From: a phage
DNA length: 64,000 bases
Direction: 5' to 3' (one strand)
NCBI GenBank assembly: GCA_018509705.1
Contig: GCA_018509705.1_3630.1
The notes beneath the pieces are model-generated. The model was not told the DNA's origin. It saw only the letters and a program-made list of their open reading frames with translations, and searched no databases. A program made the position numbers and the translations under genes. This document shows, in pieces, positions 10,409-37,617 of this stretch (the stretch's first letter is position 1; the number at the start of each line of letters is the position of its first letter).

Positions 10409-13006
10409 TTAAAGGTACAATCCACGGTATTGAGCATAAAGGCCCAGGCCGCGAAGGATTTCGCCAGAGTGATAGCCCACCGGATCAGAAACTGCCCAGC
10501 AGCCGTTTAAAACATTATCCCCATTGATGAAGTGGTGCTTTTGCAGTAGCTTCATACAGGCTTCTACAACAATGTCTATTTGAGGTATTGTCTCTGAATA
10601 CCCGCACAGACCTAGCCAGCAGCAACCTGCAAGCCATTCACCTACCACCCACATCCTGTCCCCTCTGTCTTGATAAGAATATCCCCCAGAGGTGTTAAAG
10701 TCTGTAGGCAGATTTCCTGAATGAGATGACTGGAATCTGTTGAGGAACCATGCCCATTTCTGGCAGAACAGGAATAATCTTTCATCAACAGGTTCTTTAT
10801 GTTTCTTGAGCTCATAGATTGTGCGGCACGCAGCAACAAAAGATCTTGACTGGAGCTTAGAGTTATCTACCATCTCCCACCAACCAGTCAGCCCTTCATT
10901 ACCTCTCTGCCATACATAACGCGAGGCAACTGGACCCTCTGTCTTAAATGTATTATTATACCAGACTTGAGCGTCATACAGAAAGCCTATTGTATTTGAC
11001 AATCTATGGCGATCTATGTTTTCTGCACCCATGCAGTATACTGCTGGGTATTGCATGCCAGGGTAGGGCCAATTTGGCTTTTCCTCTAAGAGATAGTTTT
11101 CCTTATCTATCACCTTTCCGGCAGGGAACACACCTGGTGTGTGCCTGTATGCACCTTGCTTGTAGTTTCTGACATAGCAATCACCAACCTTAGCGGTTGA
11201 TTCTGTCTTGCTTGCCATCCATACGCTAAACCATATTAGATAAGCATCCCTATCTGCAATATAGAACTGCGGCAGCGTGTTTACGCAGTACAGATCAAAC
11301 AAGCCATTACCTATCTGCCTGTCGCTTAGGCTGAAATCTACAGAGGTGAGCCCCTTAGGATTAGCAAAGAAAGGTTTAATCTCTTCTTCGGTGTGATGAG
11401 GTTGTGTCGGATCTAGTTTGAAATCTCCTAGAGTAAGAGTTTCTGTTATCCATTGTCCATTAGTGGCATATAGATCAGCATACCATAACCACCTATCTTT
11501 GTCAAGAAATTTGACCCTTACCATCTCATCATCTGATCTATAAGTTACTGAGTTTAAAGAAATCTCTCTCCCAAAATTGAAAGTTACTTTACCTCTTGCT
11601 ATATTACAACGGGTGAAGTTGTCAGAGTGGTTGTAAATGTCGGTATCATACTGCATACTAACACTAGCGCCACCGCTTACGACAATGTTTTCCTCTTTAG
11701 GTAAGAGATACGGATTACCGTCTTTACCAACTACCTCTACGAAATCAGTAACCTTGGCAACTATTTCTGTTACCTCTGCCCCTCCAAAAGGAACCCCTAT
11801 CCTGTACTGTTTTTTGTTATTGTTGCCATCATTAAGGATGAAATGTGGCTGGAACAGAACCCCTTCTCCTCCGAAATTCATAACAATTTCAGCATCTCTG
11901 CCTATTTTGTATGTAGTCCCTTTTTGAATTATTTCGCAAGGCTGGCGTGCGTTCATTCTAAAATTGATATACCCGTCACTGTCCCTGCTCATGGCAGGAA
12001 CTGTTCCTGCAACAAGGCAAGTACCATCTGTAAACGGTGCCTTAATCAACGTGGTCTTCCTAAACAGTTTGTCGTAGGCGTTTATATCACTGAAATTAAG
12101 CAATTTGTTGTAAGACTGTTTAAACGCGGTGTAATACTTTTCCTCACCTGTCAAGGTGTAGAGTTGATAACAAGCGTCACACCACATTTCTTCCCCGTCC
12201 AACTCTGGGGCCTGATTATCTGCAACCACGTTTATGGGATTTACAATTACAGGGGATCCTGCAGGTATCACCGATCCACCCTGCTCTTGAGGTAATCTTA
12301 CACAATAGGTCACCTTGTGGCTGCCTGTAACACCCTTATCTTGTAATTGGATTGTGCCGAACTCTACAGACGTATGACCACTGTCGGCTATGCTACCGTT
12401 AGCCCAATAGCGGTTACCATCCCATGCTATGTACCACTCAACCCACCAACTTAATCCGGATGTTGTCCAATCTGGGTTAGCATCTGTGCCACCGTAAACA
12501 TCAGAGTCTACAGTGTTTCTTCCTAACACACCGTTATACGCTTGGAATGCCTTGTCAAGGTATTCCCCCCATGTCGGAGATCCAGCTGGGATTTTTCCTC
12601 TACCGTTGGTAAAAGACACCACCACATCTTTAAACCCACCATGTGATGGAACCCCATCTGTGGATAGAGGGTAGTGGGACAATCTTTGCATTTTACTTTC
12701 TACTGCATATGCACCCAGAAGATGACTATTGTAAGCTTCCCAAGCATCTTTTGCCCTATCCAGATAGAAATCGCTTTTCGATGCCCTGTATGCTTCAATG
12801 TATCCCAGAATCAACACAGCTTGGGACTCATGCATTGCCCAATCATTATTTATCTTATTACCTGCCCACCCTGCAGCTATAAGACCATCAGGGTTTACTA
12901 ACTTATTTTGTGTAGGGGTGTTGGTAATACCTGTGTTGTTATCGAGGCACTTCCTGTGCCCCTCAATCATCTGAAATACGTTATCAATGTTATGTTGAAT
13001 ACGCAT
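10409..13006 (-). CDS. large tail-associated protein (865 aa), possible receptor-binding or depolymerase-type protein
   Basis: ORF track; size and position between fibre genes; no motif recognised with certainty. Confidence 0.35.
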   Translation of the reverse strand: MRIQHNIDNVFQMIEGHRKCLDNNTGITNTPTQNKLVNPDGLIAAGWAGNKINNDWAMHESQAVLILGYIEAYRASKSDFYLDRAKDAWEAYNSHLLGAYAVESKMQRLSHYPLSTDGVPSHGGFKDVVVSFTNGRGKIPAGSPTWGEYLDKAFQAYNGVLGRNTVDSDVYGGTDANPDWTTSGLSWWVEWYIAWDGNRYWANGSIADSGHTSVEFGTIQLQDKGVTGSHKVTYCVRLPQEQGGSVIPAGSPVIVNPINVVADNQAPELDGEEMWCDACYQLYTLTGEEKYYTAFKQSYNKLLNFSDINAYDKLFRKTTLIKAPFTDGTCLVAGTVPAMSRDSDGYINFRMNARQPCEIIQKGTTYKIGRDAEIVMNFGGEGVLFQPHFILNDGNNNKKQYRIGVPFGGAEVTEIVAKVTDFVEVVGKDGNPYLLPKEENIVVSGGASVSMQYDTDIYNHSDNFTRCNIARGKVTFNFGREISLNSVTYRSDDEMVRVKFLDKDRWLWYADLYATNGQWITETLTLGDFKLDPTQPHHTEEEIKPFFANPKGLTSVDFSLSDRQIGNGLFDLYCVNTLPQFYIADRDAYLIWFSVWMASKTESTAKVGDCYVRNYKQGAYRHTPGVFPAGKVIDKENYLLEEKPNWPYPGMQYPAVYCMGAENIDRHRLSNTIGFLYDAQVWYNNTFKTEGPVASRYVWQRGNEGLTGWWEMVDNSKLQSRSFVAACRTIYELKKHKEPVDERLFLFCQKWAWFLNRFQSSHSGNLPTDFNTSGGYSYQDRGDRMWVVGEWLAGCCWLGLCGYSETIPQIDIVVEACMKLLQKHHFINGDNVLNGCWAVSDPVGYHSGEILRGLGLYAQYRGLYL

Positions 13007-16488: not shown

Positions 16489-17400
16489 TTATTTTCCGTT
16501 AACTTTGTTGTAGTTTCCCTGCTCAGATGGGACTATGGTAGAAGGTCTTCCATATTCCTGATAATACCAATCCGCAGCAGATTGAGTAACACCGTTTTCA
16601 TCCGTCCACATCATAGATTTGTAGGGCTGCCACTCTTCTGCGGCATTTGTTGATGCAGTGTCTGCAAATGCCCCTGTGTCCCTCTTGTTACCTACGTTAC
16701 TGCCATTCTTACAGTCGTTGACAGCACCTTTTTGCTGGGTCTTGCCTACTTTCTTAGGGTTGCTGTATACAGTTGCATTAACAACCTTGTTCAAGTAGAA
16801 TGTGCGGAACTCTGTAAGTTCTACATCAAACACCATCGCAGCACCTTCACCAACAGACTTGTTGGCAGAAAGGCTGGTTATGATGTAGTTCTCAAGGAGT
16901 CTCTCCTCGGTAACCAAAGAAACCAACTGGCGCTTATTAATGATCTCAGTCAAAGCCTCCAGTGCAGCGCCTGGTCGCATAGACGCTGCAGGGTTTTTAG
17001 AGTCAGTATTCCTGTCAATGTAGTTTTGCTCATAGATTATATGTGGTGATGTATTTACCCTACCAGTAAAAGAAAATACACCATCTTTAATTACAGCGTG
17101 GTCTGACAGGGTAGATTTATCTTCCACCGCAAACCCAGTCTTATCAACAGAATGTTTGAAAGAGTAATTCTCAACCTGATCGAAGATGATGGCAAGATCG
17201 TTAGTAAAGTTTTTACCCTTCATCTCCGTATTGCGACCACCATAGTTAAGACCGCTGACAAACATAGTGTACTTTACATCGCTTTCAGTTTGCTGTTCTG
17301 CCTTTTCAGCCTTTGGAGATTTAACCTCTTGAGGCTTGTACAGGTCTTTTTCATCAACTATATTGCTTGGCATAACCTCTCCAGGACACTCCGATACCAT
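16489..17400 (-). CDS. hypothetical tail protein immediately downstream of the tape measure gene
   Basis: ORF track; context. Confidence 0.3.
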   Translation of the reverse strand: MVSECPGEVMPSNIVDEKDLYKPQEVKSPKAEKAEQQTESDVKYTMFVSGLNYGGRNTEMKGKNFTNDLAIIFDQVENYSFKHSVDKTGFAVEDKSTLSDHAVIKDGVFSFTGRVNTSPHIIYEQNYIDRNTDSKNPAASMRPGAALEALTEIINKRQLVSLVTEERLLENYIITSLSANKSVGEGAAMVFDVELTEFRTFYLNKVVNATVYSNPKKVGKTQQKGAVNDCKNGSNVGNKRDTGAFADTASTNAAEEWQPYKSMMWTDENGVTQSAADWYYQEYGRPSTIVPSEQGNYNKVNGK

Positions 17401-23691: not shown

Positions 23692-24162
23692 TTACTGTCC
23701 GATTTTAAAGGTTGCAGATTCAAGCAGCACATCGTAATGCCGCATAGCCTCGTTGAAGCCCTTTTCTTGTGCCCACTGCTCACTAACAGTAGGATTACTA
23801 AACTGCCCAGCCTCAATAACAAACTGGATAGCTTTGGCCCCTGTGTCCCCCATCTGCTTAAGAATAGCCTCTGCACTTGATCCTCTAGCCATAGCTCTCA
23901 ACAATTTTTCTGTCAAGGTCTGTAGTTGAGTACTATGAAATGCAAAGGCTGTCTCCATGAAATTGCGAACAGGCAGCCCGTTCCAACCGAAGTTGTGAAT
24001 GGCTGCCAATGTTGCCATATTTAAGCCTGACGGGTGAGGTTCGTCATAAAAGCCGTAGGTTATTGTTTTACTTTCAAGTCTCACAAGTTCTTTGTAGAAG
24101 CGATCTAAACGCTTTAGGTTGAACCTTGTTTGACATTTAACCTTTAGCATTATATCCCTCAC
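23692..24162 (-). CDS. hypothetical head-tail connector protein
   Basis: ORF track; context. Confidence 0.3.
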   Translation of the reverse strand: MRDIMLKVKCQTRFNLKRLDRFYKELVRLESKTITYGFYDEPHPSGLNMATLAAIHNFGWNGLPVRNFMETAFAFHSTQLQTLTEKLLRAMARGSSAEAILKQMGDTGAKAIQFVIEAGQFSNPTVSEQWAQEKGFNEAMRHYDVLLESATFKIGQ

Positions 24163-33912: not shown

Positions 33913-33989
33913 TGGTCTCCACGGAGTGATTCGAACACTCGACCTCCTGATCCCAAATCAGGCGCTCTACCAAGCTGAGCTACGCGGAG
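33913..33989 (-). tRNA. tRNA-Pro (anticodon UGG)
   Basis: Hand-folded cloverleaf: acceptor CTCCGCG, D-loop TAGCTCAG, anticodon loop TTTGGGA, T-loop GGTTCGAATC, encoded CCA. Confidence 0.8.
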
Positions 33990-34000
33990 TATTTATTATT

Positions 34001-34075
34001 TGGTGGCCCTGGGTGGAATTGAACCACCGTCTGGCGATTATGAGTCGCTTGCTTGAACCTTCCAGCTACAGGGCC
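34001..34075 (-). tRNA. tRNA with CAU anticodon (Met, or Ile2 lysidine-type)
   Basis: Acceptor GGCCCTG/CAGGGCC, anticodon arm GCGA-CTCATAA-TCGC, T-loop TTCAATT, encoded CCA. Confidence 0.75.
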
Positions 34076-34076
34076 A

Positions 34077-34152
34077 TGGTGCTGATGGCAGGACTTGAAC
34101 CTGCAACCTATTGATTACAAATCAATTGCACTACCAATTGTGCTACATCAGC
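34077..34152 (-). tRNA. tRNA-Thr (anticodon UGU)
   Basis: Acceptor GCTGATG/CATCAGC, D-stem GCAC/GTGC, anticodon arm ATTGA-TTTGTAA-TCAAT, T-arm GCAGG-TTCAAGT-CCTGC, CCA. Confidence 0.8.
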
Positions 34153-34157
34153 AAAAA

Positions 34158-34256
34158 GGTGCTAGGTGATGGAATCGAACCACCTATGTATTCAACGACT
34201 ACCTCGTCTATTTTCAGGATTAAAAATCCTCGCCCTTGCCAAAGGGCTTACCTAGC
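34158..34256 (-). tRNA. atypical tRNA-like gene (about 99 nt; isotype unresolved)
   Basis: Good acceptor (GCTAGGT/ACCTAGC) and T-arm (GGTGG-TTCGATT-CCATC), but about 24 extra nt between D and T arms; anticodon arm ambiguous (AGGAT-TTTTA-ATCCT or 4-bp stem with UUU). Confidence 0.3.
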
Positions 34257-34354
34257 TCAGTATGTTGACCATGTTGCTAGTCGGCGATGACGACTGTAAC
34301 ATTTGATAATCCGGTTCTGCTTCCGGCTTTCGCTTAATTACAAGGTCAACAATA

Positions 34355-34445
34355 TGGCTGAGGGTAATGGAATCGAACCATCATCAAGTCATCCTCAACG
34401 GGACGGTTTTCAAGACCGCTTGAGCACCATTGCTCCCTACCCTCA
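34355..34445 (-). tRNA. tRNA-Ser (anticodon UGA), long variable arm
   Basis: Acceptor TGAGGGT/ACCCTCA, anticodon arm GCGGT-CTTGAAA-ACCGT, long variable arm, T-loop TTCGATT, CCA. Confidence 0.7.
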
Positions 34446-34559
34446 TTTATAAACAATACTGATAATGACACTGATTTTCGAGCAGTTAGTGACTAGTATA
34501 AACGACGATAAATATCAATGCCATTATCTGTATGATTTATGCATTTAAAACTATAAATT

Positions 34560-34646
34560 TGGTGGGGAGTGGTGGAGTCGAACCACCCGAGTCGCAATGA
34601 CAATAGATTTACAGTCTACACCGCTACCCCTACGGGATAACTCCCC
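34560..34646 (-). tRNA. tRNA-Tyr (anticodon GUA), long variable arm
   Basis: Acceptor GGGGAGT/ACTCCCC, anticodon arm GTAGA-CTGTAAA-TCTAT, T-arm GGTGG-TTCGACT-CCACC, CCA. Confidence 0.7.
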
Positions 34647-34650
34647 AATT

Positions 34651-34725
34651 TGGCACCCCGTACTGGACTCGAACCAGTGTCAACGGCTTAGAAGGCCGCT
34701 GCTTTATCCACTAAGCTAACAGGGC
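34651..34725 (-). tRNA. tRNA-Arg (anticodon UCU)
   Basis: Acceptor GCCCTGT (two G-U pairs), D-stem GCTT/AAGC, anticodon arm GCGGC-CTTCTAA-GCCGT, T-arm ACTGG-TTCGAGT-CCAGT, CCA. Confidence 0.75.
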
Positions 34726-35823: not shown

Positions 35824-36033
35824 TCAACAGATTCCGGCCTTATCCTTCCTGTCTGCGTATTCTTTAATCGCAACCTCATCTGCATTAGTGACCAGGTCTT
35901 CAAAGTAACTCTCAAGCTCCTCGTCAATGTCAGGAGACCAGCTCTTTTTCCTGTCAGTGTGAATTGCAGACTTGTTGAACTTATTACAGTTCTTTGCTAC
36001 CGGGTTGTTCATTAAGCGCTCCTCAGCGTTCAT
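35824..36033 (-). CDS. hypothetical protein
   Basis: ORF track; overlaps the upstream gene end. Confidence 0.25.
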   Translation of the reverse strand: MNAEERLMNNPVAKNCNKFNKSAIHTDRKKSWSPDIDEELESYFEDLVTNADEVAIKEYADRKDKAGIC

Positions 36034-36601
36034 AGTAAATCTTATTTAACATTACCTCATCCTTTGCAGAAAGGATATCAAGATATGCATCACCAAATCT
36101 TCCTGCAACAACCTCTGCATGATACATCACTTCGTTAACATCGTCAAGAGTGATAACCGGATGACCATATCTTTCTGAATATTGTCTCAGGGTGCGATGT
36201 AACGAGTCGTCATCATATGCAGACTTTTTAATATCACAAACACGACGAATAGCCTTGATGTCGAAAAAACCTGTGCGATACCACCCAAGAAAAAGGTTTC
36301 GTGCAGTGTCAACATCTACATTGATACCATCAAGAACCTTATCTACAAGATAGCTGTCATCCTTTGGACCAGCGTCCTTAGTGCGAATGTAGTTGCCATC
36401 TTTTCCAGGCGACATCTCCTTCTCATCCCCAACCTGAATGCCATCATTTGGCGGTGTTAGCCACTTATCCGGATGCTTACGATCACGAGCGTTAGAATGA
36501 TTACGCTGGAAACCGGGCTTCCACTTGAAAGTTTTCTCCATCTGTTCTTCATTCTGATAACGTTTTGCAATCTTTTCACGGTCATCTTTGCGTGAACCCA
36601 T
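36023..36601 (-). CDS. hypothetical protein
   Basis: ORF track; GGAGG-like site upstream. Confidence 0.35.
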   Translation of the reverse strand: MGSRKDDREKIAKRYQNEEQMEKTFKWKPGFQRNHSNARDRKHPDKWLTPPNDGIQVGDEKEMSPGKDGNYIRTKDAGPKDDSYLVDKVLDGINVDVDTARNLFLGWYRTGFFDIKAIRRVCDIKKSAYDDDSLHRTLRQYSERYGHPVITLDDVNEVMYHAEVVAGRFGDAYLDILSAKDEVMLNKIYYER

Positions 36602-37104
36602 AGCTGCCTCCTCTTCAAGTTATAGAAAAACTAACTGTATCGCTTTGTAACGAGCTTTTCTATCAAACTGGTGCGATTGCATTACCTGGTATAGTTTATA
36701 TAGCTGTGGAGCGATTTAGGTGCCTTCTTGTCCGTTTCCACACATAAACTTCATCCAAGCTCGCGCGGGAGACTCTCAACCGACTCCTTCCGGCGCTGGC
36801 AAGCTTTCGTCGGTGGTCCACATCAGTGCTCGGCCTTTGGCCTGCGCTATCGCTTCGCTCTCACACATGTTAACAGACCTGCATGTATGCACTTCTGTTA
36901 TTGTGTGCACCAGGGAGGCCCGGCATCTCGCCCCTCGTAGGCGAGTGCCAATGAAGGGCCGACACTACCCATAGTAAGTAATAAATTTAAAACATGGTAC
37001 TTAGGATCTAATATATTCTACATAAGTTAAGTATATGTACTTAGTACCATAAGTACTAGATCTTTTGTTTTTTATTATTTAGTTATTTTAGTTATATTCT
37101 TTAT

Positions 37105-37148
37105 GTGTCCGTATCACGGACAGTTAGTGTCCGTATTACGGACAGTTA
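37105..37148. repeat. two tandem 22-bp palindromic units (candidate operator or iteron sites)
   Basis: gtgtccgtatcacggacagtta then gtgtccgtattacggacagtta; each contains the 7-bp inverted repeat TGTCCGT/ACGGACA; AT-rich agttatttt repeats just upstream. Confidence 0.5.
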
Positions 37149-37219
37149 CTAACCTCTGTTCCAGAGCGAACATAAAACATACGAATCCTTATAGTACAGA
37201 TATTTAAGTTTTTACTGGT

Positions 37220-37570
37220 CTAACCAGTTGTTGACATTCGAATAACTTCTTCTGGTGGCAAAACTTTGGAAAATGTGCATCTTTTACCTCTCCCTTGTGT
37301 GGATATTTCAACCACTCCCGCACATTCTAAAGTTTTAACGCACGCTGCTGCTTTTGTTTTCTTTATTCCAACATCTGCTGCAATTTTCCTTGTGCTGGGT
37401 GTGAAGCGTGAACTTCCTCCAAGCTTATACCAGTTGTGCAGGTAGCAGTATACGATCTTGTCATACAAGTCAAGAACAACAACCTCCCCAGTTGTGTCAT
37501 TCAAAACTTTTGACATAGATAGTATTTCAAGGGGGACTTTAAGATATAGCAGCTTATCCCCATCTTTCAT
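37220..37570 (-). CDS. hypothetical protein with helix-turn-helix-like segment
   Basis: STRKIAADVGIKKTKAAACVKTLECAGVVEIS resembles a winged-helix/HTH DNA-binding segment; weak. Confidence 0.3.
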   Translation of the reverse strand: MKDGDKLLYLKVPLEILSMSKVLNDTTGEVVVLDLYDKIVYCYLHNWYKLGGSSRFTPSTRKIAADVGIKKTKAAACVKTLECAGVVEISTQGRGKRCTFSKVLPPEEVIRMSTTG

Positions 37571-37617
37571 ATCTCCTGATTCTCCTTGTGTGGCAATTTT
37601 CTTTAAAATAGCAGGGA

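Follow-up and report, generated by a model that had tools for sequence, protein, structure and literature searches.

A conserved array of hairpins in vequintaviruses, shared with Escherichia coli plasmids and possibly part of a replication-origin region

A gene-free gap in the genome of an Escherichia coli phage contains an island of hairpins that is rich in guanine and cytosine (G+C), is selectively conserved, keeps its structure through compensatory base changes, and shares a core with a family of E. coli plasmids. The island lies at positions 36700-36966 of a stretch of 64,000 nucleotides (nt) from contig GCA_018509705.1_3630.1 (assembly GCA_018509705.1). This whole stretch is called the window, and coordinates refer to it unless another sequence is named. 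Its sequence assigns the window to a Vequintavirus, an rV5-like myophage of E. coli. The island is a new element that falls outside every described family. Its position beside palindromic repeats and a gene for an initiator-like protein suggests, as a tentative reading, that it is a cis-acting, modular hairpin array of the phage replication-origin region. The core common to phage and plasmids is probably a signal that phage and parasite alike need.

Structure and conservation of the island

An earlier note, made from the letters of the window, had drawn attention to a locally G+C-rich stretch with many short hairpins at 36700-36975, within a gene-free gap of about 600 base pairs (bp). The composition agrees with this description. 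The G+C content is 57% at 36700-36966 against 43.5% in the whole window (0.568 over 36700-36970 against 0.435), and in 200-nt segments it is 0.52-0.54 across 36700-36999 and 0.31-0.40 on both flanks. The gap measures 618 bp between two minus-strand open reading frames (ORFs), and both hairpins that had been quoted are present (ctcgcc-cctcgta-ggcgag at 36927-36945 and ggcc-ttt-ggcc at 36832-36842). The right boundary needed adjustment, since the conserved module stops at about 36966; leftward, homology runs to the start of a gene for a protein of 192 amino acids (aa). The only ORFs over the island are short, overlap one another and have translations rich in Arg, Pro, Cys and Ala; on neither strand do relatives preserve a reading frame, in agreement with the idea that the island is non-coding. 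Folding of the single sequence gave a modest signal on both strands, with z-scores of -1.8 for the minus strand (10 of 200 shuffles as good) and -2.4 for the plus strand (4 of 200). The structure was therefore judged by comparison of relatives, through conservation and compensatory changes.

The island follows the grammar A, CCACACA, B, CCACAT, C, (C/T)CACACA, D, E, with these modules:

36700-36762: module A, the least conserved module (diversity 0.074), which ends with the first CCACACA (36738-36744).
36763-36823: module B, the core that phage and plasmids share, made up of GCGCGGGAG, two helices and a 24-nt apical loop, then CCACAT.
36824-36867: module C, the GGCC-TTT-GGCC hairpin (36832-36842) within AGTGC/GCGCT, then TCACACA (36861-36867).
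36868-36912: module D, a long, imperfect and variable hairpin, AACAGA..TGCAT-GT-ATGCA..TCTGTT.
36913-36966: module E, a 15-bp stem, GGCCC-GGCA-T-CTCGCC / GGCGAG-TGCC-AATGAA-GGGCC, with conserved 1-nt and 6-nt bulges.

Module A holds the motif ATTTAGG.GCC, which the plasmid leader has as well. Module B contains a short GAC/GTC helix (36771-36773 with 36816-36818) and a 6-bp helix (36779-36784 with 36809-36814) that closes the apical loop TCCTTCCGGCGCTGGCAAGCTTTC (24 nt, 36785-36808). The plasmids have exactly this loop sequence, and variation within the genus does not exceed one base. A covariance model of module B matches with 94.7 bits and finds one copy in the window and one in each carrier plasmid. 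The region of module C reads CCCACACA in most relatives. Phages rV5, A6-1 and A135 have lost half of the hairpin of module D through an 18-bp deletion (36885-36902) between the short direct repeats GTATGCAC and GTGTGCAC, which indicates that module D is dispensable or adjustable.

A DNA search with the 621 bases around the island found full-length matches of 87-97% identity in 119 phage records, all of them Vequintavirus, and phage navn is the closest record (97%). Among 16 vequintaviruses, diversity is 0.026 in module B, 0.016 in C, 0.019 in E and 0.019 in the AT-rich stretch that follows the island, compared with 0.095 and 0.053 at the third codon positions of the two flanking genes, a 3-6-fold reduction for the core modules. 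Module D (0.042) and, as listed, module A are looser. The island is thus selectively conserved.

A divergent phage, represented by the 137-kb contig L019 (= L060), separates the island from its surroundings. The island of L019 is about 82% identical to that of the window, with near-identical long stretches in modules B, C and E, and module D shows a compensatory A-T to C-G change. Homology to the window ends abruptly at 36963-36966. The next 645 bp, comprising the AT-rich stretch, the repeats and the gene for a 116-aa protein, are replaced as a unit in L019 by a different winged-helix gene (143 aa) and different repeats (ATCTGATRCAAATATGTATC; window 36967-37608 versus L019 1953-2807). The exchange is a specificity-module swap. 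Since L019 keeps the island despite the swapped initiator and repeats, the island is a discrete module, independent of the adjoining cassette.

Distant phage relatives of the island were sought by DNA search, which returned only the genus Vequintavirus; matches beyond vequintaviruses and plasmids were short and at chance level. Exact-pattern scans of viral and genome collections found, besides L019, only chance matches in GC-rich genomes, and the corresponding scan of metagenomes found three further phage contigs besides L060 and two plasmid contigs. Homologues of the 192-aa neighbour protein are confined to the genus as well, so synteny could not widen the phage set. This protein has no relative in the PDB, and its single-sequence AlphaFold model is unusable (predicted local distance difference test, pLDDT, 38).

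Some of the matching records carry surprising labels. Between 18 and 20 GenBank records (MG0656xx) titled 'Campylobacter phage' are vequintaviruses almost identical to coliphages, and one of them, A135, is flagged UNVERIFIED; the Campylobacter host label of these records is doubtful. CP057073.1 (137,565 bp, in PLSDB), deposited as an E. coli plasmid, matches the island over its full length with 99% identity and is as long as a vequintavirus genome; it probably represents a phage whose genome was assembled from a culture, through a carrier state or contamination.

Plasmids that share the core

The island also matches circular E. coli plasmids of 13.2-13.9 kb with 85-87% identity. They belong to a family of about 13.5 kb (13.2-14.3 kb; records L017, which is NZ_CP020521.1, L067, L041 and L068-L075). 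The earlier note had considered a captured element. A host source for it finds no support, because no E. coli chromosome matches the island and because the G+C content of the island exceeds that of both phage (43.5%) and plasmids (44.4%). Sharing with the plasmid family, on the other hand, is real.

Compensatory changes between the phage and plasmid copies reveal the structure. The 6-bp helix of module B is ACCGAC/GTCGGT in the phage and GCTGCC/GGCAGC in the plasmids, which amounts to three double changes. In the GAC/GTC helix one pair, 36772/36817, has changed on both sides and passes through A-T, G-T, G-C and A-C states. Module E, which is also present in plasmids L017 and L073, has two pairs changed on both sides and keeps its 1-nt and 6-nt bulges. 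In total, six pairs differ on both sides between phage and plasmids, and 97.9% of cells are paired, compared with at most 45% for slid partners. The cassettes of the plasmids behave in the same way: seven of 12 pairs have changed on both sides, one-sided changes are absent, and 98.6% are paired; slid-partner controls of the conserved-structure test gave at most 57%. These pair-keeping changes identify a conserved nucleic-acid secondary structure. Together with the low diversity, they mean that the element is structured, as had been supposed, and under selection. A fold of module B computed with RNAalifold from phages alone, which hardly vary there, was replaced by the helix that the comparison of phages and plasmids supports.

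In the plasmids the module is part of an array of cassettes. The array is headed by module B or by an unrelated alternative, module B', which takes the place of B in some plasmids and has no phage-like loop. Three-hairpin units, long hairpins and sometimes module E follow. A (C)CCACACA(CA) separator stands between the cassettes, which vary in sequence and length and are shuffled in order between plasmids. No co-variation of B versus B' with any plasmid gene was found; the plasmids are mosaics. A pseudoknot in module B' (GGAGACT/AGTCTCT) was considered and dropped, since L069 and L070 change one side without compensation. The separator is itself unusual. CCACACA/TGTGTGG is the commonest 7-mer of the plasmids, with 17 copies in L017 and 15 in L067 against 1.4 and 1.3 expected, and many of the sites extend to CCACAC-N5-GCTAA. 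Its orientation flips near the iterons and at the opposite side of the circle, and 14 of the 17 copies in L017 fit a switch at the iteron origin.

The plasmids carry genes for a major capsid protein, a tape-measure protein, a Dit-like tail protein (53% identity to the protein encoded at 16687-17244), a 152-aa protein (48% identity to the protein encoded at 23722-24063), an initiator of the HTH_36 type with iterons, and small regulators. Their Dit-like and tape-measure genes are related to those of vequintaviruses. Portal, terminase and sheath genes are not listed in the plasmid annotations. The iterons are hypervariable, and each plasmid has about 3 kb of non-coding DNA. Within the window, the island is the sole similarity between plasmids and phage at the nucleotide level, and the shared proteins are at most 55% identical. 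The family of the plasmid capsid protein is confined to E. coli, with 82-99% identity and one cluster of 441 member sequences, and has no relative in IMG/VR. The plasmids of about 13.5 kb are probably undescribed satellites of vequintaviruses. Our literature search found no paper on these plasmids, on vequintavirus satellites, on vequintavirus transcriptomes or on the CCACACA motif. According to a 2025 review, only one plasmid satellite is known (PMC12282955).

Two further observations concern these elements. The plasmid record NZ_CP043822.1 (39,610 bp) has three island matches and is probably a trimer or concatemer of a satellite-like element (3 x ~13.2 kb). Outside the window, a vequintavirus non-coding region of more than 2 kb (L076, phage nomine MN850649 90807-93006) holds at its position 972-999 a near-perfect dif site (GGTGCGCATAATGGGTATTATGTTAAAT), which departs from E. 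coli dif at two positions. The same region contains several TGTGTGG motifs and a double hairpin that matches one of the plasmid cassettes. In the plasmids there is a cer-like variant whose XerD arm is perfect (AGTGTAGATAAGATCTATTATGTTAAAT).

A possible origin region and other explanations

The rest of the gap and its borders contain these features:

36023-36601, minus strand: the 192-aa ORF, left border of the gap.
36622-36663: an inverted repeat with 11-nt arms, ATAGAAAAACT / AGCTTTTCTAT, just upstream of the ribosome-binding site of the 192-aa gene.
36670-36688: a near-palindromic box, GGTGCGATTGCATTACCTG (18-20-nt near-palindrome CAGGTAATGCAATYGCAC).
36967-37104: an AT-rich stretch of 138 bp with 31-36% G+C and inverted repeats, conserved among vequintaviruses.
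37105-37148: two tandem 22-bp repeats, each with the 17-bp palindrome TGTCCGTATYACGGACA.
37220-37570, minus strand: the gene for the 116-aa winged-helix protein (HTH_36; phrog 'replication initiation protein'), right border of the gap.

On the plus strand, the hairpin array is followed by the AT-rich stretch, the palindromic iterons and the small winged-helix, initiator-like gene. The order is the same in all contexts: the array, then an AT-rich or G/C-run spacer, then iterons, always in the same orientation and on the same side. It holds for two iteron types in phages and at least four in plasmids, whichever initiator is present. The neighbourhood has the layout of an iteron origin, with 2-6 repeats of 21-22 bp, an AT-rich stretch and a gene of an initiator family. 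HTH_36 is the family matched, mostly below the Pfam threshold, by both the 116-aa protein of the phage and the initiators of the plasmids, and relatives annotate the 116-aa product as 'transcriptional regulator / replication initiation protein'. The 17-bp palindrome occurs nowhere else in the window, its spacing is 21-22 bp, and its copy number ranges from 2 to 6 among vequintaviruses (assembly A141 breaks inside the repeats). The repeats are iteron- or operator-like sites, and the AT-rich stretch is a candidate DNA-unwinding region. Palindromic repeats adjoining an AT-rich stretch resemble the lambda origin. DnaA boxes, Chi, Ter and dif sites, looked for by eye in the island, gave partial resemblances only.

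The inverted repeat at 36622-36663 is almost invariant in vequintaviruses and in L019. The near-palindromic box (18-20 nt) also occurs in the plasmids, in reverse orientation relative to the hairpin array (CAGGTAATGCAATTGCAC; plasmid 12289-12308 versus window 36688-36669, 95%), and is probably a protein-binding site in duplex DNA.

The gene order around the gap is identical in annotated relatives: a minus-strand tRNA cluster, small genes, the 192-aa gene (whose product has no assigned function in their annotation), the gap, the 116-aa gene, a phosphoesterase and a kinase. The wider neighbours of the island are tRNA, RNA ligase, phosphoesterase and kinase genes, and terminase is not among them. 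GC skew within the window tracks gene direction. The tRNA cluster consists of seven tRNAs (33913-34725). Within it, a 99-nt tRNA-like gene on the minus strand (34158-34256) is assigned a four-base anticodon (atcc) by ARAGORN, scores only 35.5 bits with Rfam and is labelled 'tRNA-OTHER' in relatives.

The comparisons establish conservation, structure, position and sharing of the island; the replication role, the ligand and the active strand in the following scheme are inferred. Opening of the DNA, or transcription toward the AT-rich stretch, would allow the hairpins to form on single-stranded DNA, on an origin transcript, or on both. The hairpins would display fixed loops, chief among them the 24-nt loop that is invariant in module B. 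These loops may be read by a conserved phage factor, and DNA synthesis would begin through loading of primase or helicase or through formation of a primer. The plasmids would use their own initiator and iterons for maintenance, and their copy of the module would let the replication machinery of the helper act on them during infection.

In favour of an origin-associated array are the low diversity, the compensatory changes, the constant placement beside iterons, the initiator family common to phage and plasmids, hints of action at DNA level, and the single copy of module B. Several points weigh against it. No vequintavirus has a mapped origin, and the 116-aa protein may instead be a repressor with its operators. 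Plasmids with B' have no phage-like loop, which means that the loop is not indispensable for plasmids. The promoter-like site and terminator-like hairpin of the plasmids, described below, fit a free RNA equally well. In such small plasmid genomes, any orientation bias of CCACACA is hard to separate from gene direction, and the motif is only weakly enriched in the phage window, where 17 copies are found (36738-36744 and 16 others) against 9.8 expected. Rfam gave no similarity to known single-strand initiation sites, for which no direct test was made.

Whether the hairpins act as DNA or RNA bears on the closest rival, a trans-acting non-coding RNA, most likely read from the plus strand, that serves as regulator, decoy or sponge for a phage or host protein. 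It might, for example, work as a decoy against defence systems or as a helper-satellite switch, with linkers of C and A that keep the hairpins independent. Such an RNA is nearly as likely as a cis element, which leaves it on the doubtful side. The plasmids provide an argument for it: a conserved plus-strand promoter-like site (TTGTCA-16-AATTAT) precedes the array, and an 11-bp terminator-like hairpin with a T-rich tail follows the last cassette, both being consensus matches only. On the plus strand, no two CCACACA linkers can pair, the stems covary around conserved bulges and loops, and helix-end extensions compatible with G-T pairs lie mostly on the plus strand. phiTE, an rV5-like relative, encodes an RNA decoy, pseudo-ToxI (PMC3475682).

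Other evidence speaks against an RNA. The earlier note had favoured a stable structured RNA, and the phage sequence does not bear this out. Nothing over the island reaches the Rfam gathering threshold (in the window only tRNAs pass), and a permissive Rfam 15 scan of the island region gave rli43 as its best match, with 23 bits against a threshold of 100; gathering and permissive scans of the plasmids and of the divergent phage passed nothing either. A consensus scan around the phage island found no promoter or terminator. Folding z-scores are alike on both strands in 12 homologues, and neither these homologues nor the cassettes gave a strand-specific RNA signal in the form of G-U pairs or a better-folding strand. 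In the best-sampled helices, cassette pairing is purely Watson-Crick without G-U intermediates, and such covariation fits DNA hairpins as well as RNA. The evidence on the strand conflicts, since single changes in L019 give A-C on the plus strand and would give G-U on the minus strand, whereas the G-T pairs at helix ends favour the plus strand. The plus-strand loops are mostly GNA triplets (GAA, GTA, GGA) and not the GNRA or UNCG loops typical of stable RNAs. DNA mini-hairpins with GNA loops are very stable and occur at the phiX174 and G4 origins. The abundance of CCACACA in the plasmids and its switch of orientation are a further hint of action at DNA level.

Two particular kinds of RNA were also looked for. 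Antisense copy control of the CopA/CopT or RNA I/RNA II type was not found in the plasmids, because the strong promoter of the initiator operon (TTGACA-17-TAAGAT) sits between the array and the genes, and the array is outside the initiator leader. A ToxI-like type III antitoxin array, with near-identical tandem units of about 36 nt, was not found in the gap, whose only tandem repeats are the 22-bp palindromes, and no ToxN-like gene is annotated nearby in phage or plasmid.

A packaging recognition signal (pac) of a headful phage, copied by satellites, is an improbable account of the island, although the sharing would suit it. Genomes of rV5-like phages are circularly permuted (PMC3475682). The similarity of 85-87% over the island, the only one between phage and plasmids in the window at the nucleotide level, stands against at most 55% for the proteins, and the plasmid annotations contain capsid and tail genes and list no terminase. 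Sharing the packaging site of the helper is a classic satellite strategy, as in P4 with P2 cos. However, plasmids with B' have no shared loop, and the island is not near terminase genes but among genes for replication and nucleotide metabolism and tRNAs, whereas a pac site usually lies within or close to the small-terminase gene. Covarying stems around an invariant loop are unexpected for a site read as duplex, and a packaging signal would leave the position beside iterons unexplained.

We likewise give little credence to punctuation of a long minus-strand transcript. In that case the stable hairpins ahead of the 192-aa gene and the tRNA cluster would direct processing, stabilise the RNA, terminate or insulate transcription, or act as a nut- or put-like site of antitermination. 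The tRNA cluster and the two genes that border the gap are all encoded on the minus strand, with no promoter consensus in between, and another vequintavirus non-coding region has a comparable double hairpin, again with a match to one of the plasmid cassettes. In the plasmids, however, the initiator promoter lies between the array and the genes and so excludes the array from that leader. The hairpins have no U-tracts, and the invariant 24-nt loop and the link with iterons would remain unexplained.

A small protein, from a plus-strand frame of 84 aa or a minus-strand frame of 56 aa (ORF78 in rV5), is very improbable: frames are open on both strands in several relatives and some GenBank records annotate small ORFs, but each frame is broken in some relative (the plus-strand frame in navn, TP14 and S127, the minus-strand frame in the window itself), no start codon or ribosome-binding site is conserved, indels inside the island of L019 shift the frame, the changes between phage and plasmids keep pairing and not codons, and plasmids gain or lose whole cassettes.

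Significance and comparison with known systems

Vequintaviruses, such as rV5 and the BASEL phages Bas48-52, are common therapeutic and model coliphages. To our knowledge, their origins, packaging signals and non-coding elements are uncharted. The island is a concrete, mutable candidate for an essential cis-signal of these phages. It is also a handle on an apparently undescribed pair of helper and satellite in E. coli, and the plasmid family is widespread. It is a real possibility, though one that we would not yet call likely, that the island is the helper-side copy of a new recognition module, made of interchangeable hairpin cassettes separated by CCACACA and read by the vequintavirus machinery. 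The plasmids would then be the first case of plasmid-borne satellites with a strictly virulent myophage of E. coli as helper, and they would use the module for replication, activation or packaging upon infection by the helper. We know of no counterpart to the cassette architecture, in which covarying hairpins are punctuated by the most over-represented 7-mer of the plasmids.

Decoy RNAs, such as the pseudo-ToxI of phiTE (PMC3475682) and the CsrB and RsmZ sponges, resemble the island as non-coding, repetitive, hairpin-rich intergenic arrays, and phiTE is a related phage. They differ in that the cassettes described here are not tandem copies of one unit and lack a ToxN-type partner, a GGA loop motif and any match in Rfam. 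The helper signals carried by satellites are similar in another respect. The cos site of P4 and P2, and the pac or cos sites of Staphylococcus aureus pathogenicity islands (SaPI) and phage-inducible chromosomal islands (PICI), are short non-coding helper sequences with an identity far above that of shared proteins. In contrast to the P4, SaPI and PICI signals, the shared piece here is a covarying stem-loop by a probable origin, and B' replaces it in some plasmids.

Origins primed by a transcript are closer in arrangement. In ColE1 (RNA II), T4 (oriF and oriG), T7 (the primary origin) and lambda, a structured transcript, or transcription toward an AT-rich region, starts replication. The plasmids have a comparable series of promoter-like site, array, G-run (GGGGGGGTTAGGGGGG) and iterons; unlike these origins, the phage has no recognisable promoter, and the array has no similarity to RNA II. 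Single-strand initiation signals, namely ssiA and ssiB of RSF1010, the G4-type G-site of R1 and the phiX174-type primosome sites, are like the island in having hairpins beside iterons and an AT-rich stretch. These known signals have sequence-specific loops, and in RSF1010 a GC-rich block adjoins the iterons, a layout similar to that of the plasmids described here. We know of no sequence similarity between the island and these signals. The likeness lies in layout and loop types, whereas the array here is modular, with shuffled cassettes separated by CCACACA. In summary, the island would act most like a single-strand initiation site or a transcript-primed origin, and its sharing with plasmids resembles that of the cos and pac sites of satellites.
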